Below are positions 7,419 to 38,190 of a stretch of 41,662 nucleotides of DNA, piece by piece (position 1 is the first letter of the stretch; every line of letters starts with the position of its first letter). The position numbers were made by a program, and so were the translations under genes. Source of the stretch: an uncultured Candidatus Saccharibacteria bacterium (GTDB lineage Bacteria; Patescibacteriota; Minisyncoccia; Portnoybacterales; GWB1-42-6). The notes under the pieces are model-generated. The model did no database searches and was not told the origin of the DNA. It was given only the letters and a program-made list of their open reading frames with translations. The stretch is taken from assembly GCA_964362775.1 (NCBI GenBank), contig CAYIFS010000001.1, positions 6,828 through 48,489 of the forward strand. The letters are read 5' to 3'.

Positions 7419-8759
7419 ATGAAAACGTTTTTTATCACCAGCTTCCATCCCCATATTTCCCGTAATATTCTCTCCACGGATTTTTTGAAAATACTAAAAG
7501 CGCAGAACCAACTGCGTCTGATTATTATAGTCCCTGACTATAAAGTTGATTATTTCAGGGCGAATTTCGGCGCCGATAACGTGATTATTGAAGGTATTAC
7601 TCCTAACCTTACTTCAAAAACCAAAACCGGTGTTTTTTTTAAAAGGCTCGGTTTTTTCTTATTTGACACCAAGACCGCCCGCTCCAAAAAAAAATATGAA
7701 TATCTTTGCCGGGGGAAATATCTAATTTATGCCTTTTCCCAATTTATGGGTTTTTTGAGCCGGTCTTTTTCAATTAGAAAGATAGTTCGTTATCTGGATT
7801 ATTATTTTTCTCCCAAAAATTTATTCAACGAATTATTCAATAAATACAAACCGGAGGCGATTTTTTCTACCGATATCCAAAATGAGAATGATATTGGTTT
7901 GCTCCATGAAGCGAAACGTCGGAAGATGCTGATCTTGGGCATGTTGAGGTCTTGGGACAATACCACTCAGCGAATTTTGCGAATTTTACCAAATAAATTT
8001 TTTGTCGGTTCTCAAGCCTTGAAAGAAGAAGTTTCGCAATTGTATCGCTATCCAGAGAAAAAAATTATCATCACCGGCAATCCCCATTACGATCGCTATT
8101 TAAAGGGCCCTTCTGTTTCCAAAGAACAATTTTTTGCCAAATTTGGTCTTGATCCGACCCAAAAAATGATTCTTTACGCTCCGTTGGGAAATTATTTATT
8201 AAGGAATAATGATGTTGACCAATATATTATGGAAATATTAGGAAAGATTGATGCCCAGATTTTGGTGAGATTTCCTCCGGATGAGTCGGTAACTTTAAAA
8301 AACTTTATCAAACCGGCCAACATGGCTTACGATCAGCCCGGAGTGGTTTTCAATAGCGAGAGATTTGGTGACCGGGAAATAAGTTTGGATGACGATCAGC
8401 GATTAATTGACGCGATTAATTGGTGCGATTTAGCCATTACCGGTCCGACCAGCATTTGTCTTGATGCGGCTTTATTGGATAAACCCGTTATCGCGGTAAA
8501 TTTTTCTCCGGCGCCGAAAAATTTTTGTGAATCGATTTTCGGCTATCATTGCGACCACATTAAAAAACTATTGGGAAGCGGCGGCGTATTCTACGCGACC
8601 GATAAAAACGATTTTTTAAGAGTGATTGAAGAATATTTAAAAAATTCAGAAAAAGATAAAGAGGGAAGAGTTAAAATTAGGGCTCTTTGGTTCTCTCACG
8701 CCGATGGCCGGTCGGCCGAGCGTTTGGCTCGGGAAATCATCGGCGCCGTAAAATCATGA
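7419..8759 (+). CDS. TagB/TagF-like (CDP-glycerol glycerophosphotransferase-family-like) GT-B protein, paralog 1 of 4
   Basis: These motifs are shared with the other three paralogs and resemble the TagF-family GYPRxD, YAPT and DYSS..FD..LDKP blocks:
- MKTFFITSF N-terminus
- EAKRRKMLILGMLRSWDN
- ITGNPHYDRY
- ILYAP
- CDLAITGPTSICLDAALLDKPVIAVNF
- C-terminal DGRSAERLAREII. Confidence 0.55.
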   Translation: MKTFFITSFHPHISRNILSTDFLKILKAQNQLRLIIIVPDYKVDYFRANFGADNVIIEGITPNLTSKTKTGVFFKRLGFFLFDTKTARSKKKYEYLCRGKYLIYAFSQFMGFLSRSFSIRKIVRYLDYYFSPKNLFNELFNKYKPEAIFSTDIQNENDIGLLHEAKRRKMLILGMLRSWDNTTQRILRILPNKFFVGSQALKEEVSQLYRYPEKKIIITGNPHYDRYLKGPSVSKEQFFAKFGLDPTQKMILYAPLGNYLLRNNDVDQYIMEILGKIDAQILVRFPPDESVTLKNFIKPANMAYDQPGVVFNSERFGDREISLDDDQRLIDAINWCDLAITGPTSICLDAALLDKPVIAVNFSPAPKNFCESIFGYHCDHIKKLLGSGGVFYATDKNDFLRVIEEYLKNSEKDKEGRVKIRALWFSHADGRSAERLAREIIGAVKS

Positions 8760-10147
8760 AGACCATTATTATTCCCGTTATTAGCGCCATTGATAAATTA
8801 TTTGCCCGCAGTTTTTTGGAAACGGATGCTTTTTTGGAAATTATCAAAGAACCGAATGTCAGACTGATTTTATTAGTTTCAAAAAATCGGTTGGAATATT
8901 ACCGGAAAGAATTTAAATTTGATAATGTGATTTTTGAAATTTTGCCCGAAGTAAAAAATTTTTGGTCCGAAAGATTTTTCAAATTTTTGGAAGCCGCCAG
9001 CATTCATACACGAACGGTTAAGATCATTCATTGGACCGCCTTAAAAAGAAAAGGAGCCAAGAAAAATATTTTGGCGAGAACTTTTATTTTCTTTTTGAGC
9101 CGTTTGTTGTGGTACGCAGGTCAATTCCGCTTTTGGCGGAATTTAATCAGACGATGTTATTTTTTGATGCCTTCTTGCGTCTTCTCGGAAATTTTTGAGC
9201 GCTTTAATCCCGATCTGATTTTCGGTCCGACTTTGATATTTTCGGAAAATCTTTTTTTGAAAGAAGCTAAAAAAAGGAAAATAAAAATCATCGGTATGGT
9301 TTGGAGCTGGGATAACCTCTATAGCAAATCATTGATTAGGGTCCACCCCGATTACTTATTGGCTCATACTGATTCCATCGCCGGTCAATGCGTCCAACTC
9401 GGCGATTATTCGGAGAAACGGATTTCTGTTATTGGCGTTCCCCAATATGACCGGTATTTCAAAAAAGAGGGAATTGAGGGAAGGGGCGAGTTCATTGAAA
9501 AAATTGATGGCAATCCCGCAAAAAAATTGATTCTGTACGCTTTTTCGGGTAAGGCCGGGCTCGGCATTGAATTTGATATTTTGAAGATTATTCATAAAAT
9601 AATCTCTGAAAAAAAATTAAGCGATAAGGTTCAAATGTTGGTCAGGCCCTATCCGCGTTTTGATTTCTCACAAGAGCAGCTTGATGGATTGAAAAAAAAA
9701 TATGGTTTTTTGGTCCATGGCGCCACTTCTCAATCGGGAAAAGATAAGGACGATTGGGGAATGGATAGGGAAGCAATAAGTTTTTTAACCAATAGTTTGG
9801 CTCATGCCGATATTGTCGTAAATATGTATTCCACTTTTTTCATTGAAGGCGCGATTTTTGACAAACCCTTGATCGGTATCGCTTTTGACGGCGAGCAAAA
9901 ACTTGATTTTTGGAATTCAGCTGTCCGATTCTTTGAATGGGATCATTTGGCGGATTTAAAGCCTTTGAACGGAATTTGGCTGGTTAAAAGCGTCGAGAAA
10001 TTGTCAGTGGCCATTGATAAATATTTAACCAAGCCGGCTTATCAAAAAGAAGGCCGGGAAAAAATTGTTCAACAGCAGTGCCAATTTATTGACGGCAACT
10101 CGGGAAAGCGCCTAGCCCAAAACATTTTAGATTTTTTAAAGGGATGA
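8756..10147 (+). CDS. TagB/TagF-like GT-B protein, paralog 2 of 4
   Basis: The start is chosen at ATG 8756 (MKTIIIPVIS), which forms an ATGA overlap with the upstream stop. Motifs are EAKKRKIKIIGMVWSWDN, VIGVPQYDRY, ADIVVNMYSTFFIEGAIFDKPLIGIAFDG and DGNSGKRLAQNI. Confidence 0.55.
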   Translation: MKTIIIPVISAIDKLFARSFLETDAFLEIIKEPNVRLILLVSKNRLEYYRKEFKFDNVIFEILPEVKNFWSERFFKFLEAASIHTRTVKIIHWTALKRKGAKKNILARTFIFFLSRLLWYAGQFRFWRNLIRRCYFLMPSCVFSEIFERFNPDLIFGPTLIFSENLFLKEAKKRKIKIIGMVWSWDNLYSKSLIRVHPDYLLAHTDSIAGQCVQLGDYSEKRISVIGVPQYDRYFKKEGIEGRGEFIEKIDGNPAKKLILYAFSGKAGLGIEFDILKIIHKIISEKKLSDKVQMLVRPYPRFDFSQEQLDGLKKKYGFLVHGATSQSGKDKDDWGMDREAISFLTNSLAHADIVVNMYSTFFIEGAIFDKPLIGIAFDGEQKLDFWNSAVRFFEWDHLADLKPLNGIWLVKSVEKLSVAIDKYLTKPAYQKEGREKIVQQQCQFIDGNSGKRLAQNILDFLKG

Positions 10148-11562
10148 ATTTTATGGATAATTCAAAGATTAAGACAATATTTATCAGCCTTTCTTCTCCT
10201 GCGGTTTTCAGAAATCTTTTTTTCTTCCCCGGCAGTTTTTTTGAACAGGTCAAAAAAAATCTGAAAGAGAGCGATGATTATAAAATTATCTTATTGATGT
10301 CTTCCCACTATCAAAAAAAATACGGCGTCTTTTTTGAAAAAATTCTTCCGGAATTAAACGGCAAATTAATCATTGAAACGGCGGATATTTCGATAAAAAA
10401 GAATCTTTGGCAAAGGTTTTTTTATTTTTTCTATTCTTATTTGATCTATACCGGCACCACCAAGCTCATGGCGACGATGGGTACGAGGCCCGATGAACCG
10501 CCCGCCGGGGGAAAATGGTATTTGGCCTTTTTAAAAATTCTGATCGCCAGAACTTTTGGGAATTCAAAATTCATAAAGCTAAAAATCGTTCCTTATCTTT
10601 TTTTAAGAATATTCAAAGAAAGGTCGTTTAAAGTTTTTTTTGAAAAATATCAACCGGATCTGATTTTTGCCACTCATCTTTACGGCTGGCCCGACGCCCA
10701 ATTGATCGCGGAGGCAAAGCGGCAAAAAGTCAAAACGATCGGCATGCCGGCCGGTTGGGATCATCTGGATAAGTATTTTTTGCCGTTTCATACGGATATT
10801 TTATTGGCTCAAAGCGAGCAAGTGAAAGAGGTGGCTATTAAATATCAGGCCTATCAATCGGCGGAGATTGTCGTGACCGGCTATCCTCATTTTGATTTTA
10901 TTTCGCGCCAAAATTATTTAATGCCCCGAGAAGAGATTTTAAAGAGCTTGGGTTTTCCGGCGGAAGCAAAAATTGTTCTTTACGTCTCCGGCAGCGCTTA
11001 TTGTCCGGACGAGCCGGATATTATTGAGCGGATTTTAAAATGGGCGGATGAAGGGAAATTCGGTTTTGATGTTCGGGTGGTGATTCGACCATACCAAGGC
11101 GGCCGGAGCAAGGATAAAGAATTTGACCAACAAAAATTTGATCATTTTCATTCTCATCCCCGGGTCGCCTTTTACCAGCGGGAATTTTGGGGCGATTTAG
11201 AAAAGAGTAATTATTTTATGAATATTTTGGCGCACGCCGATGTCGTGATTTCGGTTTACAGCACAATGGTTTTGGAAGCGGCGGTGTTGGATCGGCCTTT
11301 GATGGCGATCGGTTTTGACGGCTATCAAAAAAGACCATTTGCGCGTTCCATTCGGCGCTTTGAAGAATTTGAACATTTTCAGGATGTTTTAAAAACCGGC
11401 GCCTTAAAAACCGCTTATAATTTTGAAGAACTTTTTGGATATCTCAATACTTATTTGAAAGATCCGCGCCTGGACGGCGAAGCGAGAAAATTATTAAGAG
11501 AAAAAGTCTGCGGCCGGCTTGACGGCTTGGCTTCACAAAGAATCAGTCAGATAATTTTTTAA
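10144..11562 (+). CDS. TagB/TagF-like GT-B protein, paralog 3 of 4
   Basis: There is an ATGA overlap with the upstream stop. Motifs are IKTIFISL, EAKRQKVKTIGMPAGWDH, VTGYPHFDF, ADVVISVYSTMVLEAAVLDRPLMAIGFDG and DGLASQRISQII. Confidence 0.55.
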   Translation: MNFMDNSKIKTIFISLSSPAVFRNLFFFPGSFFEQVKKNLKESDDYKIILLMSSHYQKKYGVFFEKILPELNGKLIIETADISIKKNLWQRFFYFFYSYLIYTGTTKLMATMGTRPDEPPAGGKWYLAFLKILIARTFGNSKFIKLKIVPYLFLRIFKERSFKVFFEKYQPDLIFATHLYGWPDAQLIAEAKRQKVKTIGMPAGWDHLDKYFLPFHTDILLAQSEQVKEVAIKYQAYQSAEIVVTGYPHFDFISRQNYLMPREEILKSLGFPAEAKIVLYVSGSAYCPDEPDIIERILKWADEGKFGFDVRVVIRPYQGGRSKDKEFDQQKFDHFHSHPRVAFYQREFWGDLEKSNYFMNILAHADVVISVYSTMVLEAAVLDRPLMAIGFDGYQKRPFARSIRRFEEFEHFQDVLKTGALKTAYNFEELFGYLNTYLKDPRLDGEARKLLREKVCGRLDGLASQRISQIIF

Positions 11563-11588
11563 ATTTATAAATAAAAAGGTTGATTTTT

Positions 11589-12251
11589 ATGAAAGAAAAT
11601 ATTACCTCTGAATATTGGACTCGTTGGCGGAAAATTAATTTTGAATATTTTAAAAAAAATTTAGATGAGGAACCGACTGGCGGTCAGCTGGTTGATTTGG
11701 GTTCCGGAACCAGTCCATTCGCTATTTTAAAAGAAAAATTTTCTTGCCTTAATGTCGATTTTTCGCCTTTTGAGGGGGTGGATTTGGTAGCTGATTTAGA
11801 CGAACCTTTGCCTTTGAAAGATGATTTTTACGATATCGTTTTTATGTCCAATATTTTGGAGCATTTATTTTTTCCGGAGAGAACTCTAAAAGAAAGTTTT
11901 AGGATTTTGAAAAAAGGCGGAAAAATTTTTGGCACTGTCCCATTTTTTCTATCACCACACCAGGAGCCATATGATTTTTATCGCTATACCTATTTAGCCC
12001 TGGAGAGATTATTGAAAGAAGCCGGTTTTAGAGAGATAGATGTAGAGGCGTTGGGGGGGGGGATTGATATCCTTAAAAGTATTTCGGACTTTTTCTTTAA
12101 TCTTTTAATCGCTGGAAAAACAACCGGCATTCAGAAGGTTTTGGCCAGATTTTTGAGAAAAATAAATAAAATATTTCTACCGTTTTTTCGAAATTCCTTT
12201 CCGGCTACCAAAAATTTCGCTTTGGGTTATGGTTTTAAAGCTATTAAATAA
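11589..12251 (+). CDS. Class I SAM-dependent methyltransferase
   Basis: Motifs are LVDLGSGTSPF (motif I), DIVFMSNILEHL and ILKKGGKIFG. ATG 11589 is preferred over the TTG at 11580, and aaaaagg lies about 10 nt upstream. Confidence 0.7.
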   Translation: MKENITSEYWTRWRKINFEYFKKNLDEEPTGGQLVDLGSGTSPFAILKEKFSCLNVDFSPFEGVDLVADLDEPLPLKDDFYDIVFMSNILEHLFFPERTLKESFRILKKGGKIFGTVPFFLSPHQEPYDFYRYTYLALERLLKEAGFREIDVEALGGGIDILKSISDFFFNLLIAGKTTGIQKVLARFLRKINKIFLPFFRNSFPATKNFALGYGFKAIK

Positions 12252-12257
12252 TTTCTT

Positions 12258-13649
12258 ATGGAAGAAAAACCGGTTCAAAAGCCTAAATTTTCTTTTTCCC
12301 ATTCCTTCATTCGAGGCGAGGCGGCTTTGGGTTTTTGGGCATTCGCCAAAAAGGGCGTCGGCGCCGTTAATTCTTTTTTAATCATCAGTTCTCTTTCTAT
12401 TTATCAATTTGGCGTCTATCAGCTGGTTTTGGCGGCTTATTCTTTCGCTTCCGATTTTTTTCACGGCCTTTTTGCCACGGTCACAGGCAACGATCTGATG
12501 AGATATGTCGGCGAAGGACGAGAAGATAAGGCCAAAAAACTTTTTTTTGAATACGCGGCTTTCCGTTTGATCATGGGTCTGATCCCGGCGGTCATTCTAT
12601 TCCTTTTAGCGCCGAAACTTTCTTTTCGTTATGGCCCGGAAGCGATTTTATGGGCGCGGTTGCTAGCGCCGCTTTTCATTTTGGACGCGGTGGCGCCGCT
12701 GGGAATTTTGCTTTTGAAATTGCGTCTGAATTTCAAAATTTTTTCCGCTCAGCCCACGATCCAAAAAATCGCGCATTTGGGAATTTTGGCCTATTTTTTC
12801 TTTTTCGCGCAACTCGGCATCAAGGAAATTTTTATCGCTCAAATTTTGGCGCCCGTTATCGCTTTTTTCATTCTGTTGGGCCCGATAATCAACGCTTGGC
12901 GGGTTTGGCGCGCGACCACGGCTTTTTCTTCCCGGATGCTTTGGCTGGTGGTGAAAACTTATGGCAAGTGGGAAATCCCTCAATTTTGTTTTTCCGACAT
13001 CAACGGCCGTATCCGGCCCTGGCTGATAAAATTATTTTTGAACACCGAATCCGTGGGTATTTTTGGCGTGGCTTATACCTTTGTGAACGCCCTCAAGGAT
13101 TTACTGCCGGTGAGAACCCTGGGACTTCTTGTACCGCGCAAGGTTCGCGATAAAGAATATTTCAATCAGCTTTTTCTCTATGGCACCAAATATTATACTT
13201 TGATGAGTTTGGCGCTGGTTGTTTTGGGAAGCTTTGGCGTACCGATGGCCATTTACATTTTTTTCCATAAATATCTTTCTTCCATCCCTCTGTTTTGGCT
13301 GCTTTTGCCGATTATTGTCATTTTCGCCTTTACTAAAATGATAAATATAATGCTGGTTGCCCAGCGCCGGCAAAAATTTATTTTCTATCAGTCGATTTTG
13401 CAAAACGGATTAAATCTTTTATTTTTAATTTTTGTCTTGCCCTTGGTCGGCCTTTGGGGTTTGCCCCTGGCCGAAGTTTTATCTTCTTTAATTATAACGG
13501 TCGCTAAATATGTTTATTTGAAGCGGACAAAATTTATTGACTCTTTTCCTTTCGTTCGACTGTTTGCCTGGGAAGAGCGGGATAAAATTATTTGGCGGAC
13601 CTTAAAAAATCATTTTTTGGGCTTTTTTCCTAATTTTTTTAAATCTTAA
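12258..13649 (+). CDS. Polysaccharide flippase-like multi-pass membrane protein (Wzx/MOP-type)
   Basis: 463-aa ORF that is very hydrophobic, with many predicted TM segments. It sits in the middle of the glycan operon. No catalytic motifs were seen. Confidence 0.6.
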   Translation: MEEKPVQKPKFSFSHSFIRGEAALGFWAFAKKGVGAVNSFLIISSLSIYQFGVYQLVLAAYSFASDFFHGLFATVTGNDLMRYVGEGREDKAKKLFFEYAAFRLIMGLIPAVILFLLAPKLSFRYGPEAILWARLLAPLFILDAVAPLGILLLKLRLNFKIFSAQPTIQKIAHLGILAYFFFFAQLGIKEIFIAQILAPVIAFFILLGPIINAWRVWRATTAFSSRMLWLVVKTYGKWEIPQFCFSDINGRIRPWLIKLFLNTESVGIFGVAYTFVNALKDLLPVRTLGLLVPRKVRDKEYFNQLFLYGTKYYTLMSLALVVLGSFGVPMAIYIFFHKYLSSIPLFWLLLPIIVIFAFTKMINIMLVAQRRQKFIFYQSILQNGLNLLFLIFVLPLVGLWGLPLAEVLSSLIITVAKYVYLKRTKFIDSFPFVRLFAWEERDKIIWRTLKNHFLGFFPNFFKS

Positions 13650-15340: not shown

Positions 15341-16021
15341 ATGATTAAAGCGATCGTTCTTGACTTTGATGGGACAATAGTTGATTCTAATGAAATCAAG
15401 CGGGAGGCTTATTTTCGTCTTTTTTCGCCTTCCAAAAATGCCCAAAAGATAATCGGCACGATTGACAGAATCAATGGTACTCGCTGGGAGATCATCAGAA
15501 AGATATTGGTTGCCCTAAAGGCGGCGGGCGAAGTTGATTTTTCTGATTTGGAAAAAGAAGTGAAAAACAGGGGTTTGGAATACGGTAAAATGGTCAAGGA
15601 AGAAATTATTGCGGGCGAGGGTATCCCTGGTGCGTTTGAAAGCCTCTGGCAATTGAAAAGAGAAGGGTTCCGGATACATTTGAATTCAGTAACGCCAGAA
15701 GGACCGCTCAAAGAAATCATTGATGTTCTTATAAAAAATGGCGATCTTCCCGAATTGCAGGGGGTTTTTGGCCGGAAAGAGGGAATAAAAGAAGAAATAA
15801 CGGCAAAAATTTTGAATTTTGAACAGATATTGTCGCTTGAAGGATTGAAACCAGATGAAGTTGTTTTTGTCGGAGATAGGGAAATTGACAGAAAAACGGC
15901 GGAAATAATCGGTTGTCATTTTATCGGCGTGGAAAATGAAATAAGCGAATGGACAAAAACTGATTTTCCGCGAGTGACAGACCTGAAGGATTTGCCCCGA
16001 ATGATCGAAGAGATCAGATGA
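15341..16021 (+). CDS. HAD-superfamily phosphatase (likely sugar-phosphate phosphatase)
   Basis: It has AIVLDFDGTIVDS (DxDGT motif I) and VFVGDREIDRKTA (motif IV-like). A good SD sequence, gaaaggag, lies upstream. Confidence 0.75.
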   Translation: MIKAIVLDFDGTIVDSNEIKREAYFRLFSPSKNAQKIIGTIDRINGTRWEIIRKILVALKAAGEVDFSDLEKEVKNRGLEYGKMVKEEIIAGEGIPGAFESLWQLKREGFRIHLNSVTPEGPLKEIIDVLIKNGDLPELQGVFGRKEGIKEEITAKILNFEQILSLEGLKPDEVVFVGDREIDRKTAEIIGCHFIGVENEISEWTKTDFPRVTDLKDLPRMIEEIR

Positions 16022-16124: not shown

Positions 16125-16841
16125 ATGGAAATTTTAGCTGTGATTCCGGCCCGCGGCGGGTCAAAATCCATTCCCCGCAAAAATATCAAACTTTTGGCGG
16201 GCAAACCCCTGATCGCCTGGACGATTGAGGCGGCCAAAAAATCAAAATATTTGATACGGGTGATCGTTTCCACTGATGATCCGGAAATCGCGGCCGTGGC
16301 CAAAAAATTCGGCGCCGAGGTACCTTTTTTGCGGCCCGCGGAAATTTCAGGAGATTTGGCCACGGACGTGGAATTTTTGACGCACGCCTTGGATTTTTTA
16401 AAACAGGAGGAAAATTATGAGCCGGATATCATTTTACGCTTGCCGCCAACCTCGCCGTTGCGCCTGGCGGCTCATATTGACGAAGGCATAGAAATTTTAT
16501 TGAAGAATCCCGAAGCCGATGCTTGCCGGCCGATTTGTGAAGCGCCCAAGCATCCTTATAAAATGTGGAAAATAGGGGAAGATGGAAAATATCTTGAGCC
16601 GTTTCTTTCAAAAGAATATACAAAAATGGATGAACCTTACAACGCGCCGCGTCAGATCCTGCCCAAAGTTTTCATTCATACCGGCGCCATGGATGTGATG
16701 AGATTGAAAACTATCCGAGAAATGAAGTCCACTTCCGGCAAAAGACTCGCTTATTTTTTTATGAAGCCGGAAGACGCGGTGAATATTGACCAGCCGATAG
16801 ATTTTGAACTTGCTGAATTTTTAATGAAGAAAAGACAATAA
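16125..16841 (+). CDS. Acylneuraminate cytidylyltransferase-family CMP-sugar synthetase (NeuA/LegF/PseF-like), copy 1
   Basis: It has ILAVIPARGGSKSIPRKNIKLLAGKPLIAWTI and VIVSTDDPEIAAVAKKFGAEVPFLRPAE. It is clearly paralogous to 25121-25840. Confidence 0.8.
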   Translation: MEILAVIPARGGSKSIPRKNIKLLAGKPLIAWTIEAAKKSKYLIRVIVSTDDPEIAAVAKKFGAEVPFLRPAEISGDLATDVEFLTHALDFLKQEENYEPDIILRLPPTSPLRLAAHIDEGIEILLKNPEADACRPICEAPKHPYKMWKIGEDGKYLEPFLSKEYTKMDEPYNAPRQILPKVFIHTGAMDVMRLKTIREMKSTSGKRLAYFFMKPEDAVNIDQPIDFELAEFLMKKRQ

Positions 16842-16845: not shown

Positions 16846-17913
16846 ATGATTAAGAAAACAAAAAATATCAAAGTAAAAATTCTCGGCGCCGGTTCCATCG
16901 GCAATCATCTGGCCCAGGCGGCGCGGCGTTTGGATTGGGATGTTTGCGTGGTGGACAGGGATGTTGAAGCCCTGCGCCGGATGAGAGAAGAAATTTATCC
17001 ACAACGCTACGGCGCTTGGGATGAAAAAATAAAGCTCTTCGCGGTAGGGTTGGAACCCAAAGGCGGTTTTGACTTAATTTGCGTGGGCACGCCGCCCGAC
17101 GTCAGAATGAGGGTGGCTCTGGAAATCCTAAAAGAAAAACCGCGTATTTTACAATTGGAAAAACCGCTCGGCGTGCCGTCAAAACAGGGTATGGCGGAAC
17201 TTGATAAATTTTTGAAAGAATACAAAAAGCAAAAACAGACCGCGGTTTTGGTGGGTTATGACCATTCGGTCTCCCAATCAATTAAAGAAGTTTTGGAGCT
17301 TTTAAAAAATAAACAAATTGGCGAGATTTTAACGCTTGATGTGGAATTCCGCGAATATTGGGGCGGAATCTTTAAAGCTCATCCTTGGCTGGCCGGACCG
17401 CAGGATTCTTATTTGGGTTTTTGGCAACGGGGCGGCGGCGCCAGCGGCGAACATTCGCACGCTTTGCATCTTTGGTATTTTTTGGCCAAAGAAGCGGGGA
17501 TTGGGAAAGTTGAGAAAATAAACGCTGCCTTGCAGATGGTGCAAAATAAATTAGTGGATTATGACGCTGTTTGCGCTTTAACTTTTAAAACTGATCAGGG
17601 AAAGATCGGCCGCGTGGTTCAGGACGTGATTACTTCGCCCGTGAAAAAAAGAGCTTATCTTCAAGGAAAAGAAGGATTTGTGGAATGGCTTTGCAACGGT
17701 CACCTGGAGGGGGATCTGGTAAGATATTCAATTAAAGGCCAGATCAAGGAGAAAATTTTCAAAAAGAAAAGGCCCGATGATTTTTACATGGAAATGTCGC
17801 ATATCAAAGATATTTTGGAAAAGAAAATTTTGGCTTCAAAATCGCCGCTTTCTTTTGAGAGCGGTTTGGAAGTGATGAGAACGCTGGCCTGGGTTCATCA
17901 GAAAGGAATATAA
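16846..17913 (+). CDS. Gfo/Idh/MocA-like NAD(P)-dependent oxidoreductase
   Basis: It has an N-terminal KVKILGAGSIGNHLAQAA dinucleotide fold and the EKP motif (LQLEKPLG). Confidence 0.6.
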   Translation: MIKKTKNIKVKILGAGSIGNHLAQAARRLDWDVCVVDRDVEALRRMREEIYPQRYGAWDEKIKLFAVGLEPKGGFDLICVGTPPDVRMRVALEILKEKPRILQLEKPLGVPSKQGMAELDKFLKEYKKQKQTAVLVGYDHSVSQSIKEVLELLKNKQIGEILTLDVEFREYWGGIFKAHPWLAGPQDSYLGFWQRGGGASGEHSHALHLWYFLAKEAGIGKVEKINAALQMVQNKLVDYDAVCALTFKTDQGKIGRVVQDVITSPVKKRAYLQGKEGFVEWLCNGHLEGDLVRYSIKGQIKEKIFKKKRPDDFYMEMSHIKDILEKKILASKSPLSFESGLEVMRTLAWVHQKGI

Positions 17914-18137: not shown

Positions 18138-19676
18138 ATGTTTTGGCCCAACAAAAAGTTCGATTTTAACGGTCTCTTCGTTCTGGATATGGCTAATAAC
18201 CATCAGGGAAGCCTGGAACACGGTTCGCGCATCGTGCGGGAATTTGCCGCGGCGGTGCGGGAAGCCGGCGTCCGGGCCGGGATCAAGTTCCAGTTTCGCG
18301 AATTGAATTCTTTCATTCATCCCGATTTCCGGGAGTCAACCGAGAACAAACATATCCCGAGATTTTTATCAACCGCCTTTTCCAAAGAAGATTTTGCCAT
18401 TTTGGCGGAAGAAGTGAGAAATCAAGGATTAATCACCATCGCTACCCCTTTTGATGAAAAATCAGTGGAGTTGGCGGAAAAACTGGGAATTGAGATTTTG
18501 AAAGTGGCCAGTTGTTCGGCCCTGGATTGGCCGTTGCTTCAGCGCATCGCCGAGTCCGGCAAACCGGTAATTTGTTCCACCGCCAATTTGCCTTTGGCGG
18601 AGGTTGATAAGATTGTCAGCTTCTTTGACCATCGCGGCGTGGATTACGCGCTCGCGCACTGCGTGGCGGTTTATCCGACCCCCAAAGACAAATTAAATCT
18701 TGAACGGATAAAAATTTTCCGCCATCGTTATCCGCATCTTTCAATCGGTTTTTCCACTCACGAAAGCCCGGACGATCTTGACGCGATCAAGGTGGCTTAC
18801 GCCAGCGGGGCGCGCTTTTTCGAGCGCCATATCGGCGTGGAAACGGAAGATATTAAATTAAACGGTTATTCTTCCAGGCCCCACCAAATTCCCGGGTGGT
18901 TTGAAGCCTGGAAAGAAGCGGTTAAAATGCTGAATCTAAAAAACGCGGAAGACGATTTGGAAGAAAAAGAATCTTTGGAATCGCTGATGCGGGGCGTTTA
19001 TTTCCGGGATAATATCATGGCCGGCGAAAAAATCGGCCGGGAACGAGTATTTTTTGCCATGCCCCTTTTGCCGGGTCAGTTGAAATCCGGTCAATGGAAG
19101 GATGATTTGACGGCCGATCGGGATTATTTCGCCGGCCAGCCCGCGCCCGCCTCCATCAAACCCGATATTTTTTCTCAAAGAGATGTTATTTATCAAACCA
19201 TTCGCACGGTCAAAGGCATGCTCAATATGGCTCGAATTTTTCCCAATTATGATTCTTCGGTGGAAATCTCTCACCATTATGGTTTGGAAAATTTCTTTGC
19301 CGTTGGCGCGGTTATTATTGATTGTATCAACCGCGAATACTGCAAAAAACTGATTATCGTCTTGCCCGGCCAAAGCCACCCCTATCATTATCACAAAAAG
19401 AAAGAAGAGACCTTTCAGGTTTTGTCCGGTCAGATGGAAGTGGAGCTGGAAGGAAAAAAACGGATTGTTTATCCGGGCGATACGGTGCTGGTCCCTCGCG
19501 GCATTTGGCACAGTTTTTTTACGAACGAAGGCGTGATCTTTGAAGAGATTTCCACCACCCATTTTAATAACGACTCTTTTTACGCGGATAAATCAATTGA
19601 TAAACTTCCCCGGGAAGCCCGCAAGACCAAATTGATCAATTGGGGCCGTCATCAATTTGATGAATTGAAAAATTGA
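18138..19676 (+). CDS. NeuB-family (N-acetylneuraminate/pseudaminate/legionaminate synthase-like) enzyme with a SAF domain and a fused C-terminal cupin domain
   Basis: The NeuB core has LDMANNHQGSLEHG..REAGVRAGIKFQ, ATPFDEKSVELAEKLGIEILKVASCS, GKPVICST, LAHCVAVYPTP, GFSTHE and GARFFERH. The SAF-like stretch is YFRDNIMAGEKIGRERVFFAMP. The cupin motifs are LPGQSHPYHYHKKKEETFQVLSGQMEV and YPGDTVLVPRGIWHSF. Confidence 0.75.
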   Translation: MFWPNKKFDFNGLFVLDMANNHQGSLEHGSRIVREFAAAVREAGVRAGIKFQFRELNSFIHPDFRESTENKHIPRFLSTAFSKEDFAILAEEVRNQGLITIATPFDEKSVELAEKLGIEILKVASCSALDWPLLQRIAESGKPVICSTANLPLAEVDKIVSFFDHRGVDYALAHCVAVYPTPKDKLNLERIKIFRHRYPHLSIGFSTHESPDDLDAIKVAYASGARFFERHIGVETEDIKLNGYSSRPHQIPGWFEAWKEAVKMLNLKNAEDDLEEKESLESLMRGVYFRDNIMAGEKIGRERVFFAMPLLPGQLKSGQWKDDLTADRDYFAGQPAPASIKPDIFSQRDVIYQTIRTVKGMLNMARIFPNYDSSVEISHHYGLENFFAVGAVIIDCINREYCKKLIIVLPGQSHPYHYHKKKEETFQVLSGQMEVELEGKKRIVYPGDTVLVPRGIWHSFFTNEGVIFEEISTTHFNNDSFYADKSIDKLPREARKTKLINWGRHQFDELKN

Positions 19677-19734: not shown

Positions 19735-19763
19735 TTGAAAAAAATAACTTAATGTGCTATACT
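19735..19763 (+). promoter_or_regulatory. Near-consensus extended -10 promoter TTGAAA-17-(TGc)TATACT
   Basis: The hexamers are at 19735-19740 and 19758-19763, with TG at 19755-19756. The site is 44 nt upstream of the 19807 start. Confidence 0.55.
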
Positions 19764-19806
19764 ATTTTAAATTGAAGAAGCGGGGGAAAATTGGTAAAAT
19801 TAAAAA

Positions 19807-21174
19807 ATGAAAACCGTTTTTATCACAATTTTTTCGGGCAACGGGGCGAAATACATTCTGCGAAGCGATATTTACAGAATTATGATAAAGAACGAAGAAA
19901 TTCGGTTGGTTTTTTTTGTCAAGAATCGAGAACGGGCGGAATATTATCGGCGGGAATTTGATCATCCTCGGATGATCTTTGAAGCGATTACCAATTATCA
20001 ATTTTCTTTTACGGACAAATTATTCGGCTTTTTTAAAAAATATCTTTTGCGCTCCAAAACAATTGACTTGAAAAGATTAAAAAATTATGAAGAATCGGGT
20101 AATTGGCTTCGGTTTTCAGCAAGCTTTTTGGCCAACAGAATTTTCGCTCGGCCCCGAGTGAGAAAAATAATTCGTTTTTTGGATCAATGCTTGATCAAAG
20201 ATTGCCAATTAGTTCCTTGTTTTGAAAAATATAATCCGCAGATGTTGCTTGTTACCGATGTTTTCGACGATCGGGAAGCCGGTTTCATCCGCGAGGCCAA
20301 AAAGAGAAAAATTACTTCCGTGGGTTTGATCCTTTCTTGGGACCGCGTGACCTCCCGTTGGATGATGAGGATCTTGGCCGATAAATACATTGTCCATAAC
20401 GAAATTATGAAAGAAGAGATGGAGTTTTATTGCGACGTGAAAAAAGATAAAGTTTTTATTTCCGGCGCCATCCAGTTCGATTATTTGAAAATGCCGCTTC
20501 GCGCGACACGCGAGGAATTTTATCGCTGGAATAATATTCCATTGGATAATAAAATAATTTTATTCGGTCCGATCGGTCGGTCTTTCGATAGAACGAAGCA
20601 ATTAGATTTTGGATTAATCGAAAAATTGAATTCTTGGATAGATGAAAAAAGATTCGGTGATCATAATTTGACATTGATCGTTCGTTTCCCTCCAAATGAT
20701 TTTGTGGAGATTGATAAGCTGGTTTCTTTCCCTCACACAATTTATCAAATACCCGGAATAAGGTTTTCCCAAAAGCGGGGAGCGGACTGGGATATGACCG
20801 GCGAAGATTTGGAATTATTGAAAGAGACTCTTTATTATTCTTCTTTGGTTGTCTGTTTCTATTCCAGTTTGAGCATCGACGCGGCGTTCGTAGATAAGCC
20901 GATAATCAATATCAATTTCAATATCAAAGATAAAGAAATAATTTCTCGGCCGCATCATTATTATCAGTCCACTCATTACAGCCGGGCCTTGGCCACAGGG
21001 GGACTGAAATTGGTGGAAAGTGAACAGAAACTAATTGAAGTTTTAAAAAATTATCTTGAAAATCCTTCTCTGGATAGAGCCGGAAGAGAAGAATTGGTCA
21101 GAAGCCAATGTTTTAAGGCCGACGGTCAATCGGGCCGGCGCGCCGCCGAACTTTTGCTTTTCTGGTTAAATTAG
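19807..21174 (+). CDS. TagB/TagF-like GT-B protein, paralog 4 of 4
   Basis: It has MKTVFITIF, EAKKRKITSVGLILSWDR, ISGAIQFDYL, SLVVCFYSSLSIDAAFVDKPIININFN and ADGQSGRRAAELLL. The block order matches that of 7419, 8756 and 10144. Confidence 0.55.
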   Translation: MKTVFITIFSGNGAKYILRSDIYRIMIKNEEIRLVFFVKNRERAEYYRREFDHPRMIFEAITNYQFSFTDKLFGFFKKYLLRSKTIDLKRLKNYEESGNWLRFSASFLANRIFARPRVRKIIRFLDQCLIKDCQLVPCFEKYNPQMLLVTDVFDDREAGFIREAKKRKITSVGLILSWDRVTSRWMMRILADKYIVHNEIMKEEMEFYCDVKKDKVFISGAIQFDYLKMPLRATREEFYRWNNIPLDNKIILFGPIGRSFDRTKQLDFGLIEKLNSWIDEKRFGDHNLTLIVRFPPNDFVEIDKLVSFPHTIYQIPGIRFSQKRGADWDMTGEDLELLKETLYYSSLVVCFYSSLSIDAAFVDKPIININFNIKDKEIISRPHHYYQSTHYSRALATGGLKLVESEQKLIEVLKNYLENPSLDRAGREELVRSQCFKADGQSGRRAAELLLFWLN

Positions 21175-22903: not shown

Positions 22904-24076
22904 ATGAAAGGAAAATTTTTAGTGACCAATTTCGCTTACGGCACGGGGCCCTATTTGCGGACCACGGATTTGGCCATCGCTTTTAACAATGAGCTGGAAA
23001 AGGTTGGCTCAAGAGGGCGCTTGGGAATAATCGTTCCTTGGGTCTATGGCGAAAAACAAAAAAGGGTGATGCGGGAAGAATTTTCCGGCCATTTGAAAAA
23101 ATATCCCGACGAGATTCTTTTGGACGCTCAATTGGGTTCTTTTTTAAAAACTATTTTTTACGGCGATAATAATTATCAGGATGCGTTAAGCCAATGGATA
23201 AATTCGTTTGAGGGTATTTCTCTGAAAACTCGCGATTATTTGTCCGGAAATTTGGATCTGGAGACTTTTTCGGGAAAGAAGAAAAAAATTGCCGGCAAAA
23301 ATATTGTCGTTGAATTAAATCGCTCTCCTCGCGTCTCTTATAAAATCGCGCCTTCCTATCTTACTTCCTTCGGCTATATCGAAGAGATATTGAAAAAATC
23401 GGCCGGGGTCGCCGAAATTGACGTGAAAAAAAATCTTTTGAGGCGGGGCGCGGAAACCGCTAAAAAAGCCGAGGCGGGTCATCAAATCCATTGCATCGCT
23501 TATCCGGGCACATTTTCTTTCAATAAAAATTATCAGCCTCGTTATAAAACCGAGATTTTAGTGCCGCCCATCGCCCCGCCGCCTTTGCCCAATAAAAAGA
23601 AGATCAAGAAAGGGATTTTCGTGACCATCACCGGTATCCCGGGCCTTGAAAGGCTATATCGTCAAGCCAAGGAGCTTGGTTTAAAACTTTACAGCAACGA
23701 CACAGAGGCTGTGCCGGGCAGTATTCGGGCTTTGCCCTGGATCATTCCCAATAAGAACATCGTTTTTCAATTCGCGCGATCGGGCTGGAGCTCGGTTTGG
23801 ATCTCAATGATCAGCGGCACGCCGCTCGTGGTTCCCGATTTTGATTCCAAAGACGACCCGGAAATTTATTTTAACAATCAGGCGATTGAAAAATTGGGCA
23901 TTGGCATAATTTATCGGGGCCAGCCGTTGAAGGAAATTTTAAAGCAAGCGGAAAAAATCAGAAAAAACAGCCAAATTTTAAAAAATAAAATTTTGAAACG
24001 TTGGGGGACTTTGGATGGCAACAAATATTGCGCCAAATTATTCACCGAACATTTTTTGAAAAATTTTTCCAAATGA
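22904..24076 (+). CDS. Hypothetical GT-B protein with a MurG/PseG (GT28)-like C-terminal half
   Basis: FQFARSGWSSVWISMISGTPLVVPDF....EIYFNNQAIEKLGIG resembles the GT28 C-terminal donor-binding block. The N-terminal half was not recognised. Confidence 0.4.
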   Translation: MKGKFLVTNFAYGTGPYLRTTDLAIAFNNELEKVGSRGRLGIIVPWVYGEKQKRVMREEFSGHLKKYPDEILLDAQLGSFLKTIFYGDNNYQDALSQWINSFEGISLKTRDYLSGNLDLETFSGKKKKIAGKNIVVELNRSPRVSYKIAPSYLTSFGYIEEILKKSAGVAEIDVKKNLLRRGAETAKKAEAGHQIHCIAYPGTFSFNKNYQPRYKTEILVPPIAPPPLPNKKKIKKGIFVTITGIPGLERLYRQAKELGLKLYSNDTEAVPGSIRALPWIIPNKNIVFQFARSGWSSVWISMISGTPLVVPDFDSKDDPEIYFNNQAIEKLGIGIIYRGQPLKEILKQAEKIRKNSQILKNKILKRWGTLDGNKYCAKLFTEHFLKNFSK

Positions 24077-24130
24077 TTTAAGATTGATACAACGCGTTAG
24101 ATCAGCGGACTGGATTATTAATTGTTCAAT

Positions 24131-25105
24131 ATGGCTAAAATAATCGTGGAAATTTGCCAAAATCACAATGGCGACAGGGCTCTTCTAAAAGAGATGATTT
24201 GGGCCGCCAAAGAAAACGGCGCCGATATAGTGAAGGGCCAAATCATTTTTTCCGAGGATTTGACGAAAAGAGAGCGCTTTGAGGAAGGTTTTATGGAACC
24301 AAACGGCGTCAGAAAAACCATTAAGAGGCCCTATCAAGACGAATTTGAAAGGCTAAAAAAACTTGATTTAACCGAAGATGATTATATTTTTTTTACGGAA
24401 GAATGCCGACGCGCGGATATCATTCCGATGCTGACGGTTTTTTCCCGGAATCGGGTTTCGTTGGCCTCTCCAGTGCCCTATATCGGGAAAAAATGGGTGA
24501 AAGTAGCGAGTTACGATTGCGGCAGTCTCTCGTTGATTAAAGAACTGGCTGTTAATTTTGATAATTTGATTATTTCCACCGGCGCGAGCTTTGACGAAGA
24601 AATCCAAAAAACCGCGGAAATTTTGAAAAATAAAAACAAGGAATTTGTTTTTTTGCACTGTGTGACCAGCTATCCCAATTCTTTGGAAATGGCCAATTTG
24701 GCTCGGCTTGAATGGTTGAGAAAATTGACGCCGCAAGTCGGTTGGTCCGACCACACGCTCGTTTCGCGCGACGGCCTCAAGGCCTCAAAGGTGGCTTTAG
24801 CGCTGGGCGCGGATTATATTGAGCGGCATTTTACGGTGCTTCCTTCGGATAAAACCAAAGACGGTCCGGTTTCCATCAGCCCGGTTTTGCTTAAAGAATT
24901 GGCCGATTTCGCTAAATTGTCCAAAAAAGAGCAAAGATTGAGAGTGGAAAAAGAAATTCCCGAATGGAGAATTTTGATCGGTTTTCCCCAAAGAGAAATG
25001 ACCCAAATTGAAATGCTGAATCGGGATTATTATCGGGGCCGTTTCGCCAGTTTTAAAAACAACGAATGGATCTTTAATTGGGAGGACAAAGATTTAAACA
25101 TTTAA
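24131..25105 (+). CDS. NeuB-family sugar-PEP condensing synthase, copy 2 (short form)
   Basis: It has AKIIVEICQNHNGDRALLKEMIWAAKENGADIVKGQ, VKVASYDCGS, LHCVTSYP, GWSDHT and ADYIERHFT. ATG 24131 is preferred over TTG 24122. Confidence 0.75.
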   Translation: MAKIIVEICQNHNGDRALLKEMIWAAKENGADIVKGQIIFSEDLTKRERFEEGFMEPNGVRKTIKRPYQDEFERLKKLDLTEDDYIFFTEECRRADIIPMLTVFSRNRVSLASPVPYIGKKWVKVASYDCGSLSLIKELAVNFDNLIISTGASFDEEIQKTAEILKNKNKEFVFLHCVTSYPNSLEMANLARLEWLRKLTPQVGWSDHTLVSRDGLKASKVALALGADYIERHFTVLPSDKTKDGPVSISPVLLKELADFAKLSKKEQRLRVEKEIPEWRILIGFPQREMTQIEMLNRDYYRGRFASFKNNEWIFNWEDKDLNI

Positions 25106-25120: not shown

Positions 25121-25840
25121 ATGATTAATAAAAAAAAGGTTTTGGCCATCATTCCGGCCCGAGGCGGTTCTAAAGGCATTCCGAAAAAAAATATTTTCCC
25201 GCTGGCGGGCAAGCCCTTAATTGCTTACAGTATTGAATCAGTTAAAGCGTCTAAATTGATTGACCGAGTGATAGTTTCCACCGACAGCGAAGAAATAAGA
25301 AAAATCGCCGAAAAGCTTGGCGCGGAAACGCCTTTTTTGCGGCCAGCAGAAATCGCTCAAGATATGACCCCTGATTTGCCGGTTTTTGAGCATTGCTTGG
25401 CTTGGCTGAAAAAAAGAGAAAATTATATCCCCGAAATTATTGTTCATTTAAGGCCCACCGGCCCCTTGCGCACCGGCAAAGAAATTGACGAAGCGATCCG
25501 TCTTTTGGAAAAATATCCCCAGGCCGATAGCGTGCGTTCGGTGGAAAAACCGCCCAAGCCTCCTTATAAAATGTGGAAGCCCGACGGCGTTTTTATCAAA
25601 CCGTTTGTCAGCTATTTGCCGGGAATTAAGGATTTTCATACGGCGCCGAGACAATCTCTTCCTTTGGTTTTTCAAACGACCGCGGATATCGGGGTTTTTC
25701 GTTCAAAGATTGTTCAAGAGAAAAAATCCATTATTGGCGATAAAGTTTTGCCTTTTTTACTGCGACGGCCGACGGTGGATATTGACGACAAAACCGATTT
25801 TTTAATCGCCGAACTATTATTAAAGAAATCTAAAAGTTAA
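25121..25840 (+). CDS. Acylneuraminate cytidylyltransferase-family CMP-sugar synthetase, copy 2
   Basis: It has LAIIPARGGSKGIPKKNIFPLAGKPLIAYSI and VIVSTDSEEIRKIAEKLGAETPFLRPAE, plus KPPYKMWK, which copy 1 shares as KHPYKMWK. Confidence 0.8.
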   Translation: MINKKKVLAIIPARGGSKGIPKKNIFPLAGKPLIAYSIESVKASKLIDRVIVSTDSEEIRKIAEKLGAETPFLRPAEIAQDMTPDLPVFEHCLAWLKKRENYIPEIIVHLRPTGPLRTGKEIDEAIRLLEKYPQADSVRSVEKPPKPPYKMWKPDGVFIKPFVSYLPGIKDFHTAPRQSLPLVFQTTADIGVFRSKIVQEKKSIIGDKVLPFLLRRPTVDIDDKTDFLIAELLLKKSKS

Positions 25841-27707: not shown

Positions 27708-29054
27708 TTATATTCCTCCGCCGCTTAAAATGGTTTTGATGGTTTTTAGGATGATCGCAAGTTCCAGAATCAATGAGCGATTTTTGATATAATAAAGGTC
27801 AAATTGGAGTTTTTGGAGGGTATCTTCGATTGATGAGCCGTAGGGATATTTTATTTGCGCCCAGCCGGTCAGGCCGGGTTTAATAGTGTGGCGGATTTGG
27901 TAGAAGGGGATCTTTGCTAAAAGCTCATTGGAAAAAGCGAACTCGGGCCGTTCTGGCCTGGGTCCGACAAAAGACATATCGCCGCGCAAAACATTCCAAA
28001 GTTGGGGCAATTCATCAAGGCGAGTTTTGCGCAAAAATTTGCCCACGTGGGTAACGCGCTCGTCATTTTTTTGGGCCCATTGGGCGCCTTCTTTTTCGGC
28101 GTCGCGAACCATCGTCCGAAATTTTATCACTTCAAAAATCCGATTATCTTGGCCGACCCTTTTCTGGCGATAAAAAATCGGACCGGGCTTGTCTATTTTT
28201 ATCAAAAAAGCGACAAGTGGCAGAATCACTAAAGTAAAAAACCCCAGAATTAAAGCGGCCAGAATATCAATAATCCTTTTTAGCATTTCAAAAAAAACTT
28301 TTCGGCCGGTCATCAAGTTTTCCAAAAACCAGACTTCTTCAATCGCCGAAACCGGGATTTTGCCGGTGATTTTTTCATAGAAGCTCGGCAGATCGGCCAG
28401 CATCACTTTTAAGGGGATACATTGATAAAGATTGCGGACAAGTTCCGCGTCTTTCCTGGGATCAACGCTCGTCACCACCACCTGGATCTTTTCCTGAACT
28501 ATAGTATCTATCAAATCATAAAGGATTTTTACTTCCGCGGGATCAACGATTTTTTTGATGCGGTAGCCCAATTGCGGATTATCTTTAATATATTTTATTA
28601 ATTCCTGGCTTTCTCGGCTTTGGCCGATAACCAGGACATTGTTTAAAAGAGCGGATGTTTTCACAAAATGATTATAGAACTGGCGCCAGAAGATAAAAAA
28701 GAGCGCGAAGAGCCCGAGGTCGATGAAAAGATTGGTTTTGGGAGTGATGTTAAAATAAGAAAAGAAATAGAAAAAAGCGATGGCCAAGAAAGCGTTGATT
28801 ACCAAGGCTTTGGCCAGGGTCACGAAGAAATAGATATTGTTGCGCGCGACACTTAGATCGTAGAGGCCGATGATGTAAAAAACGAGCAGCCAGAGAAAAT
28901 AGATGACGGAAAAAGCGGAGAAATGGTCCCCCCAAAAATTTTCCCAATTATCCCCATATCTTAAAAACAGCGTCAAAAAAAGCGCCAGATATAAGATTAG
29001 GATATCGCCGGCCACCAGCATGAAAGTTTTTATTTTATTGACTAGGGCGCTCAT
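27708..29054 (-). CDS. Polyprenyl-phosphate sugar-phosphotransferase (bacterial sugar transferase, WbaP/EpsB-type initiating enzyme)
   Basis: N-terminal TM helices and a Rossmann-like linker precede KRIIDILAALILG, PIFYRQKRVGQDNRIFEVIKFRTM and DELPQLWNVLRGDMSFVGPRP. Confidence 0.85.
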   Translation of the reverse strand: MSALVNKIKTFMLVAGDILILYLALFLTLFLRYGDNWENFWGDHFSAFSVIYFLWLLVFYIIGLYDLSVARNNIYFFVTLAKALVINAFLAIAFFYFFSYFNITPKTNLFIDLGLFALFFIFWRQFYNHFVKTSALLNNVLVIGQSRESQELIKYIKDNPQLGYRIKKIVDPAEVKILYDLIDTIVQEKIQVVVTSVDPRKDAELVRNLYQCIPLKVMLADLPSFYEKITGKIPVSAIEEVWFLENLMTGRKVFFEMLKRIIDILAALILGFFTLVILPLVAFLIKIDKPGPIFYRQKRVGQDNRIFEVIKFRTMVRDAEKEGAQWAQKNDERVTHVGKFLRKTRLDELPQLWNVLRGDMSFVGPRPERPEFAFSNELLAKIPFYQIRHTIKPGLTGWAQIKYPYGSSIEDTLQKLQFDLYYIKNRSLILELAIILKTIKTILSGGGI

Positions 29055-33791: not shown

Positions 33792-33816
33792 AAACGGGGT
33801 TTTAAAAAACTATTTT

Positions 33817-38093: not shown

Positions 38094-38130
38094 GGAATAC
38101 TAATATTAGATTATAGCTTGTAGCTTTCTC

Positions 38131-38160: not shown

Positions 38161-38190
38161 ATTTGATAAAAATTGTGATAGAATTAAATT

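Follow-up and report, generated by a model that had tools for sequence, protein, structure and literature searches.

Four related genes, here P1–P4, lie in 41.7 kb of a metagenome contig from groundwater (Hainich); the window means this whole stretch of DNA. The proteins that they encode belong to a separate and so far uncharacterised branch of the TagB/TagF superfamily, which we name the SWD family. The window holds a polysaccharide island, and its closest relatives carry Patescibacteria annotation. Taking sequence, predicted structure and gene neighbourhood only, we judge it on balance probable that P1–P4 are glycosyltransferases (GTs) with an ulosonic acid activated by cytidine monophosphate (CMP) as donor, that is, CMP-ulosonic-acid (sialic-acid-like) transferases.

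A preliminary description of this DNA had reported four paralogous TagB/TagF-like proteins, three of them encoded in tandem. Four related open reading frames (ORFs) of 446–469 amino acids (aa) are indeed present where it had placed them:

7419..8759, + strand: P1, 446 aa; 54 bits to PF04464; SWD at residues 178–180 and RFPP at 284–287
8756..10147, + strand: P2, 463 aa from the ATG at 8756; 33 bits to PF04464; RPYP
10153..11562, + strand: P3, 469 aa (472 aa from the ATG at 10144); 51 bits to PF04464; GWD and RPYQ
19807..21174, + strand: P4, 455 aa; 34 bits to PF04464; RFPP

P2, P3 and P4 are only 25–30% identical to P1, and the four are therefore old paralogs, not recent copies. The ATGA start/stop overlaps described for the tandem genes stand in part. 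That of P1 and P2 is real (8756–8759; the ORF list starts P2 at an upstream TTG, 8687), while that of P2 and P3 is uncertain because it depends on the start codon of P3: an ATGA exists at 10144–10147, but P3 as publicly called on this contig begins with the ATG at 10153, 5 nucleotides (nt) past the P2 stop, and an AAGGGA lies ~9 nt upstream of this ATG. The three genes are tightly packed whichever start applies, and 4-nt overlaps are seen in orthologous trios of other genomes. Among the shared sequence blocks that had been listed, EAK(R/K)(R/Q)K...(S/G)WD, G.(P/I)(H/Q)(Y/F)D and (L/V)(Y/F)(A/V/G) occur in all four proteins. Elsewhere there are small deviations: P2 begins with MKTIII, P1 has CDLAITGPTS where AD(I/V)V..YS(T/S) was expected, and the C-terminal block of P3 is DGLASQR. 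The series RFPP, RPYP, RPYQ and RFPP in P1–P4 is exactly as described.

All four proteins exceed the 22.1-bit gathering cut-off of the Pfam family Glyphos_transf (PF04464), with 54.2, 32.9, 51.3 and 33.8 bits for P1–P4, and the match lies mostly in the C-terminal half. Alignment of the family by hhalign with seven canonical TagF-like domains, which were taken from annotated plasmid records and also used for motif comparison, gave a probability of 99.4% (E 1e-20). By these profiles P1–P4 are homologous to TagB/TagF, and their earlier placement as divergent TagB/TagF relatives holds. The SWD family and the homologous GT-B enzymes TagB, TagF and TarL (PF04464; TagF 3L7I, TarL 8VA1) share the G-x-P-x-x-D linker, the (K/R) of the (K/R)xH strand, an (S/T)(S/T)...D/E ribose region and the C-terminal DG..R motif, and CMP is the expected leaving group in both. 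In the ribose region, (S/T)(S/T) at 344–345 and D/E349 match the DYSS...E497 stretch of TarL that contacts ribose. A full-length match to the family profile, together with the invariant W-D, G..D, R, H380 and DG..R, places all four proteins in the SWD family.

This kinship could mean that P1–P4 are ordinary alditol-phosphate transferases, which use cytidine diphosphate (CDP)-glycerol or CDP-ribitol to make a teichoic-acid-like polymer on a monoderm envelope, with the CDP-alditol genes elsewhere in the genome. Besides the PF04464 matches, such a role would agree with the public label ‘CDP-glycerol glycerophosphotransferase family’ and with TarL and Cps3D being the only significant solved sequence relatives. 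We nevertheless regard it as decidedly unlikely. The TarL, TarF and TarB equivalog models score P1–P4 at 18 bits or less, and both histidines that define TagF catalysis (PMC10901376) are absent from all four proteins.

In TagF-like enzymes the proposed catalytic base is a histidine (TagF H444, TarL H300), and a second histidine (TagF H584, TarL H433; ‘RMH’) contacts the α-phosphate and helps CMP to leave (PMC10901376). Every one of the seven canonical domains (7/7) has both, as WH(G/A) and (K/R)xH, respectively. In P1–P4 the second histidine aligns to Pro, Tyr, Tyr and Pro (P286 in P1), while the preceding Arg is invariant; the by-eye suggestion that the HP histidine of TagF is missing was thus correct. 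The absence of the first histidine is an addition to it: WH(G/A) is not seen in P1–P4, and no N-domain position carries His in at least 90% of both branches of the family. The Patescibacteria branch was sampled by 148 non-redundant proteins (80 loci), and the other, which is mainly proteobacterial, by 106 proteins. The SWD family further differs from TagF and TarL in having P-x-G instead of PT(W/F)R and in lacking the extra N-terminal domain of the polymerases.

The only residues conserved at 90% or more in both of these sets are P145, A165, W179, D180, G220, D225, R284, P356, H380, R417, D429, G430 and R435, and all four paralogs retain every one of them from W179 onwards. H444 of TagF and H300 of TarL sit in WH(G/A); the SWD family has an invariant SWD motif instead, of which W179–D180 is found in 148/148 Patescibacteria proteins and 106/106 others (254/254). 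D180 is the sole family-wide invariant polar residue of the N-domain; because it is invariant and follows the fifth N-domain strand, it is the residue that we favor as candidate catalytic base. R284 and H380 might stabilize the departing CMP phosphate, since P1–P4 have Pro or Tyr in place of the usual HP histidine. A direct mapping of TagF H444 by sequence was not relied on: full-length and N-domain-only hhalign, local and global, gave a low-confidence register for WHG, which pairs the TagF strand with a predicted helix or the β4 loop of P1. Loss of β-phosphate contacts was also dropped as evidence for a CMP donor, since the role of H433 at the α-phosphate and in CMP departure is needed in both chemistries.

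The HP histidine has been lost in part of the family only. Position 286 is His followed by Pro (RxHP) in 104/106 proteins of the second branch, whereas the 148 Patescibacteria proteins have Pro (69), Tyr (41), His (17) or Gln (11) there. Because the histidine is near-constant in the one branch and a minority state in the other, the ancestral state of the family looks like ‘Asp ... RxHP’, with the histidine lost later in most Patescibacteria members, P1–P4 included. Inverting GT-B sialyltransferases (PmST1, NST) likewise pair an Asp base with an HP histidine.

The gene neighbourhood of the family points to the donor. We compared 79 distinct Patescibacteria loci (76 species-representative genomes, two metagenome contigs and the window), a sample that was seeded from P1-like sequences through an alignment of P1 orthologues only; counts cover the fetched ±10 kb, and ‘directly adjacent’ means a distance of at most 300 bp. 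A NeuA- or NeuB-like gene occurs in 45/79 loci and both occur in 31/79, and in 25/79 a family gene is directly adjacent to one of them. TagD-like genes, by comparison, were found in four of the 79 loci and never next to a family gene, and TarI or TarJ in none (0/79) within the same ±10 kb. On checking, the four TagD-like matches proved to be generic PF01467 proteins 6–8 kb away from the anchoring family gene, and one of them is fused to phosphoenolpyruvate (PEP) mutase. As a control, the sampled canonical TagF-like genes on plasmids do adjoin tagD (Listeria, Roseovarius) or tarI/tarJ (Leuconostoc). SWD family genes are thus linked to neuA/neuB-type genes and not, like those of TagF and TarL, to tagD or tarIJ, which argues against alditol-phosphate transfer and favors the earlier suggestion that the proteins may use CMP-activated sugars made in the island. 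A TagD-like cytidylyltransferase domain joined to PEP mutase (L046:2522-3895) hints at CMP-phosphonate chemistry in the vicinity of a family gene.

Within the window, Pfam and NCBIfam scans of all 34 ORFs judged to be real genes (SecA being recognised by eye alone), plus phmmer with authentic TagD, TarI and TarJ sequences, found no TagD, TarI or TarJ. Two CTP_transf_3 (NeuA/PseF-like) and two NeuB genes were found, in agreement with the preliminary description. The window spans only about 42 kb of the genome, so that tagD could lie elsewhere in it, and most loci with the P1-P2-P3 trio lack Neu genes within 10 kb; both points leave some room for the alditol-phosphate alternative.

Family members outside Patescibacteria argue in the same direction as the NeuA/NeuB counts, and against alditol-phosphate transfer, since all those checked (4/4) lie in neuBCA-type clusters. 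A full-length relative on a plasmid of Rhizobium sp. WL3, found by tblastn of plasmid records (216 bits against the family hidden Markov model (HMM); motif GSWD), has its gene directly after neuC and a gene for an acylneuraminate cytidylyltransferase, and neuB and kpsF lie close to it; its 115 homologues are unnamed or ‘hypothetical’ save for a few database-transferred labels. In Polaromonas sp. YR568, a Rickettsiales metagenome-assembled genome and a metagenome contig, the member lies within a cluster of NeuB(+SAF), Epimerase_2 (NeuC) and CTP_transf_3 (NeuA) genes, and in 2/3 of these contexts it stands exactly between neuC and neuA. This is the usual place of a sialyltransferase gene. The Rhizobium plasmid also carries four tandem ‘hypothetical’ genes of 449–513 aa upstream of neuB (L092:946-6795). 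Three of them have weak BFO_1060, TIGR04396 or Capsule_synth matches and the fourth (513 aa) matches the family HMM only, at 30 bits; the quartet resembles the tandem arrangement and may be its proteobacterial equivalent.

In an exhaustive profile search, 3,014 representatives, each standing for a 50%-identity cluster, reached E ≤ 1e-30, and 7,548 reached E ≤ 1e-10. The family, with about 3,000 such clusters, comes mostly from Patescibacteria, the proteobacterial branch being added to these, and is currently labelled ‘CDP-glycerol glycerophosphotransferase’ or ‘hypothetical’. The 79 loci hold one family gene in 32 cases, two in 22, three in 20 and four in five, often interleaved with methyltransferase genes, and a conserved P1-P2-P3 unit recurs at 16 loci. 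Fused single proteins also occur (among P0357-P0360, P0363, P0412 and P0373): several contain two complete family domains (about 900 aa), one contains three (1546 aa), and in one a family domain is fused to a methyltransferase. These multi-domain proteins support the idea that neighbouring paralogs cooperate.

The best NCBIfam match of all four proteins is NF046086, ‘BFO_1060 family glycosyltransferase’ (58.7, 45.2, 50.5 and 34.6 bits), far under its 200-bit cut-off, which places P1–P4 outside that family. They score 18.4 bits or less against the surface carbohydrate biosynthesis protein model TIGR04396, whose cut-off is 125. The Pfam models of sialyltransferases (GT38/42/52/80) and Capsule_synth gave no match to P1–P4 at E ≤ 10; the remaining Pfam matches at this threshold (DUF815, Mito_fiss_Elm1 and Poty_PP) are all at chance level. 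No sialyltransferase or Capsule_synth chain was found in sequence searches of the PDB or among the 50 Foldseek matches listed. Assignment to a sialyltransferase, Capsule_synth or unrelated family was accordingly rejected, with PF04464 standing alone in Pfam apart from chance-level matches and PDB profiles leading to TarL, Cps3D and UDP-sugar 2-epimerases (UDP, uridine diphosphate). The SWD family is thus a large, uncharacterised family that lacks the TagF catalytic pattern and falls outside BFO_1060, and its Patescibacteria members add the loss of the HP histidine and the tandem sets.

An AlphaFold2 model of P1 built with 51 homologues (predicted local distance difference test (pLDDT) 93.5; predicted template modelling score 0.90) shows a GT-B fold of two Rossmann domains, with four helices inserted at residues ~69–130. 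A helical insertion in the N-domain is likewise present in TagF and TarL and may mediate monotopic membrane binding; we take P1–P4 to be cytoplasmic, probably membrane-associated GT-B enzymes. Among the matches listed for P1 against the PDB, Foldseek gave UDP-N-acetylglucosamine (UDP-GlcNAc) 2-epimerases (query-normalised template modelling score 0.58), TagF (about 0.5) and GT4/GT1 enzymes. Sequence profiles lead to only three kinds of solved relative, namely TarL (8VA1), Cps3D (8QOY), which is a TagF-like capsule polymerase, and with weaker matches the UDP-sugar 2-epimerases. NeuC-like epimerases were considered, since UDP-GlcNAc 2-epimerases top the Foldseek matches and weak NeuC matches occur. 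They were rejected because P1–P4 do not match Pfam Epimerase_2, because the proteobacterial clusters hold a separate Epimerase_2 gene, and because three or four tandem paralogs are ill-suited to a single epimerase step.

The same structural matches raise the broader alternative that P1–P4 have some other GT-B activity, with a UDP-, guanosine diphosphate (GDP)- or deoxythymidine diphosphate (dTDP)-sugar or a CMP/CDP-linked phosphonate or phospho-sugar, or that they are in part non-catalytic scaffold subunits of a multi-enzyme complex. The best Foldseek matches include UDP-GlcNAc 2-epimerases and GT4/GT1 enzymes no less than TagF, weak sequence matches to epimerases exist, and the trio loci lie among large GT4 arrays. 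The lost HP histidine, the cytidylyltransferase–PEP mutase fusion at one related locus, and the resemblance of the tandem and fused copies to multi-domain capsule polymerases could also be read in this way. We think such an activity unlikely, given that in profile comparisons P1–P4 clearly come closest to cytidine-nucleotide enzymes, those of PF04464 and BFO_1060. In addition, every family-wide invariant residue is kept in all four proteins, none of which resembles a dead scaffold, and the proteobacterial clusters already hold a separate Epimerase_2 NeuC.

A link between TagB-like proteins and nonulosonic acids (NulOs) is already known in kind from Tannerella forsythia, where deletion of the TagB-like Tanf_01245 / TFUB4_00887 removes pseudaminic (Pse) or legionaminic (Leg) acid derivatives from the S-layer O-glycan (PMC5420450); NF046086 (BFO_1060) is named after a Tannerella homologue of these genes. 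The Tannerella enzymes resemble P1–P4 in being TagB-like GT-B proteins encoded with nonulosonic-acid pathways. Unlike P1–P4, they reportedly keep the HP motif, which is discussed in the same study (PMC5420450), are encoded by single genes, and act on a protein O-glycan in Bacteroidota. Bacillus subtilis SpsB and SpsB-like ‘spore coat proteins’ (COG1887 TagB/SpsB) are likewise TagB-domain GT-B proteins encoded beside Leg or Pse genes. At 60 bits against the family HMM, the SpsB-like protein of Peribacillus, whose gene adjoins pseG/H/I, is more distantly related; it differs in keeping KPHP and in matching Capsule_synth, and no SWD motif was found in it.

Inverting bacterial GT-B sialyltransferases (GT80 PmST1, GT52 NST/Lst and the GT38 polysialyltransferases) are similar in the chemistry proposed here, with a CMP-sugar donor, an Asp base and, in the proteobacterial branch of the SWD family, an HP histidine; their genes also lie inside neuBCA clusters, and multi-copy or polymerizing forms exist. 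P1–P4 differ from them in lacking the HP histidine and have no detectable similarity to their Pfam models or solved structures. The KpsC/KpsS transferases for β-linked 3-deoxy-d-manno-oct-2-ulosonic acid (PF05159) also depend on a CMP-ulosonic acid, are GT-B-like and in many cases have tandem or duplicated domains, but they are retaining enzymes with other motifs, and P1–P4 do not match PF05159. At the Rhizobium, Rickettsiales and L096 loci, neighbouring genes do match this model.

Several observations weigh against ulosonic-acid transfer by P1–P4. Pfam puts the four proteins in an alditol-phosphate transferase family, with zero matches to its sialyltransferase or Capsule_synth models, and the nearest solved sequence relatives, TarL and Cps3D, include no sialyltransferase. 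The N-domain alignment to TagF is unreliable, and D180 is put in the place of H444 by conservation and strand order rather than by superposition. Loss of the HP histidine would be unusual for a sialyltransferase too. The aminotransferase and dehydratase genes of Pse and Leg pathways are absent from the island. For the P1-P2-P3 trio specifically the association with Neu genes is weaker, with such genes within 10 kb in only 5/16 trio loci and the closest P1 orthologues mostly among or downstream of GT4 arrays. Gene adjacency can also mislead, because SpsB, encoded beside the legionaminic-acid pathway, is not needed for Leg: deletion of B. subtilis spsB leaves Leg on the spores (PMC7439481).

Transfer of an ulosonic acid remains the reading that we favor. 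The island begins with genes for a GT4, an asparagine synthase, a B12-radical S-adenosylmethionine (SAM) enzyme, a methyltransferase, a radical SAM/SPASM protein and a GT2, followed by P1-P2-P3 and then by these features:

11580..12251, + strand: SAM-dependent methyltransferase (Pfam/NCBIfam scans)
12258..13649, + strand: Wzx-like flippase, a multi-pass membrane protein with a weak Polysacc_synt match, whose orthologue in locus L005 matches PF01943 and PF13440
13652–14290 and 14472–15287, + strand: two methyltransferases (profile scans)
15341..16021, + strand: HAD-family phosphatase, candidate sugar-phosphate phosphatase of cassette 1
16125..16841, + strand: cytidylyltransferase 1 (NeuA1), CTP_transf_3; best NCBIfam match PseF at 148 bits, under the PseF cut-off
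16846..17913, + strand: Gfo/Idh/MocA-like oxidoreductase (profile scans)
18138..19676, + strand: NeuB-family synthase 1 (NeuB1) with a C-terminal cupin (mannose-phosphate / lyxose isomerase-like); same fusion in L005
19689..19721, + strand: strong terminator-like hairpin of 14 pairs with a T run, from a consensus scan only; separates unit 1 from P4
21178..22902, + strand: CBS-domain nucleotide-sugar dehydrogenase, closest in NCBIfam to UDP-N-acetylmannosamine dehydrogenases
22904..24076, + strand: unannotated 390-aa protein with a GT1/UGT-type GT-B fold (AlphaFold2 pLDDT 93.6) and no Pfam or NCBIfam match
24122..25105, + strand: NeuB-family synthase 2 (NeuB2; profile scans)
25121..25840, + strand: cytidylyltransferase 2 (NeuA2), CTP_transf_3, PseF-like (profile scans)
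25846..27654, + strand: NodU/CmcH-type carbamoyltransferase (profile scans)
27708..29054, − strand: Bac_transf initiating phosphoglycosyl transferase (profile scans)

P1–P3 lie in one directon with NeuA1 and the NeuB1–cupin fusion, and P4 heads the run of dehydrogenase, GT1-like protein, NeuB2, NeuA2 and carbamoyltransferase. Two promoter-like sites follow the hairpin (19735–19800). P4 is probably the first gene of a second transcription unit, which runs to the carbamoyltransferase gene and encodes a CMP-sugar cassette of its own. The cupin of NeuB1 occupies the place where NeuB normally has an SAF domain; together with the HAD phosphatase it may hint at a route from hexose phosphate like that to ketodeoxynonulosonic acid (Kdn).

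A mechanism is proposed in which the conserved C-terminal domain would hold a cytidine-nucleotide donor, namely a CMP-activated ulosonic acid of Kdn/NulO type produced by the two NeuB/NeuA cassettes of the island. The acceptor would be a lipid-linked glycan: the Bac_transf enzyme would initiate it and the GT4 and GT2 enzymes would lengthen it, it would be O-methylated and carbamoylated, and the Wzx-like protein would flip it. CMP would leave as in TagF, and the acceptor hydroxyl would attack the anomeric carbon of the keto-acid sugar, not the β-phosphate; this switch would be a small step because CMP leaves in both TagF and sialyl-type chemistry. The three or four tightly packed paralogs would most probably attach one residue after another or form distinct linkages, and they may act as a complex.

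Going further, and with considerable doubt, we entertain the idea that Patescibacteria have an unrecognised, lineage-wide class of ulosonic-acid transferases derived from the TagF scaffold, which would work without either of the histidines considered essential in TagF-like enzymes and sialyltransferases, by using the SWD Asp with R284 and H380, and whose tandem or fused sets would build heavily O-methylated oligo- or poly-ulosonic-acid surface chains. Bacterial nonulosonic-acid transferases are few and hard to recognise (PMC5420450), and we found no literature linking Patescibacteria with nonulosonic acids. If P1–P4 do carry out sialic-acid-like transfer, thousands of annotations would be wrong, and SWD ... 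RxHP/RxxP ... H ... DG..R would be a new search signature. Phosphotransferase and glycosyltransferase scaffolds would then be seen to exchange chemistry while retaining the CMP leaving group. Acidic, methylated surface glycans would be common across Patescibacteria, where an ulosonic-acid glycan could affect host attachment or evasion by these ultra-small episymbionts. Cultivable members (Rhizobium sp. WL3, Polaromonas sp. YR568 and Herbaspirillum) offer a direct route to function.

The unannotated 390-aa protein was tried as a fifth family member and rejected, with an hhalign probability of 0.2% and a GT1-like fold. It has 410 homologues, of which all those with source names are from Patescibacteria, and it accompanies the CBS-dehydrogenase, NeuB2 and NeuA2 genes in other loci. 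It may act as another transferase or as a PseG-like hydrolase of nucleotide sugars.

Some further features of the window were noted. The B12-binding radical SAM protein (2873–4288, + strand) and the radical SAM/SPASM protein (4927–6033, − strand) adjoin the asparagine synthase homologue and, for a glycan cluster, are unusual candidates for tailoring. A small ORF with a GIY-YIG / T5orf172 nuclease domain (6998–7342, − strand) lies between the GT2 gene and P1 and is kept in near-identical contigs (L001–L003). Downstream of murB, a polyamine module (32418–35827, + strand) encodes an arginine decarboxylase, a deoxyhypusine-synthase-family protein and an agmatinase in a row. The G+C content rises from 0.32 (38001–39000) to 0.52 (39001–41000) across secA, compared with about 0.41 in the rest of the window, which could reflect either gene-specific composition or an assembly join.

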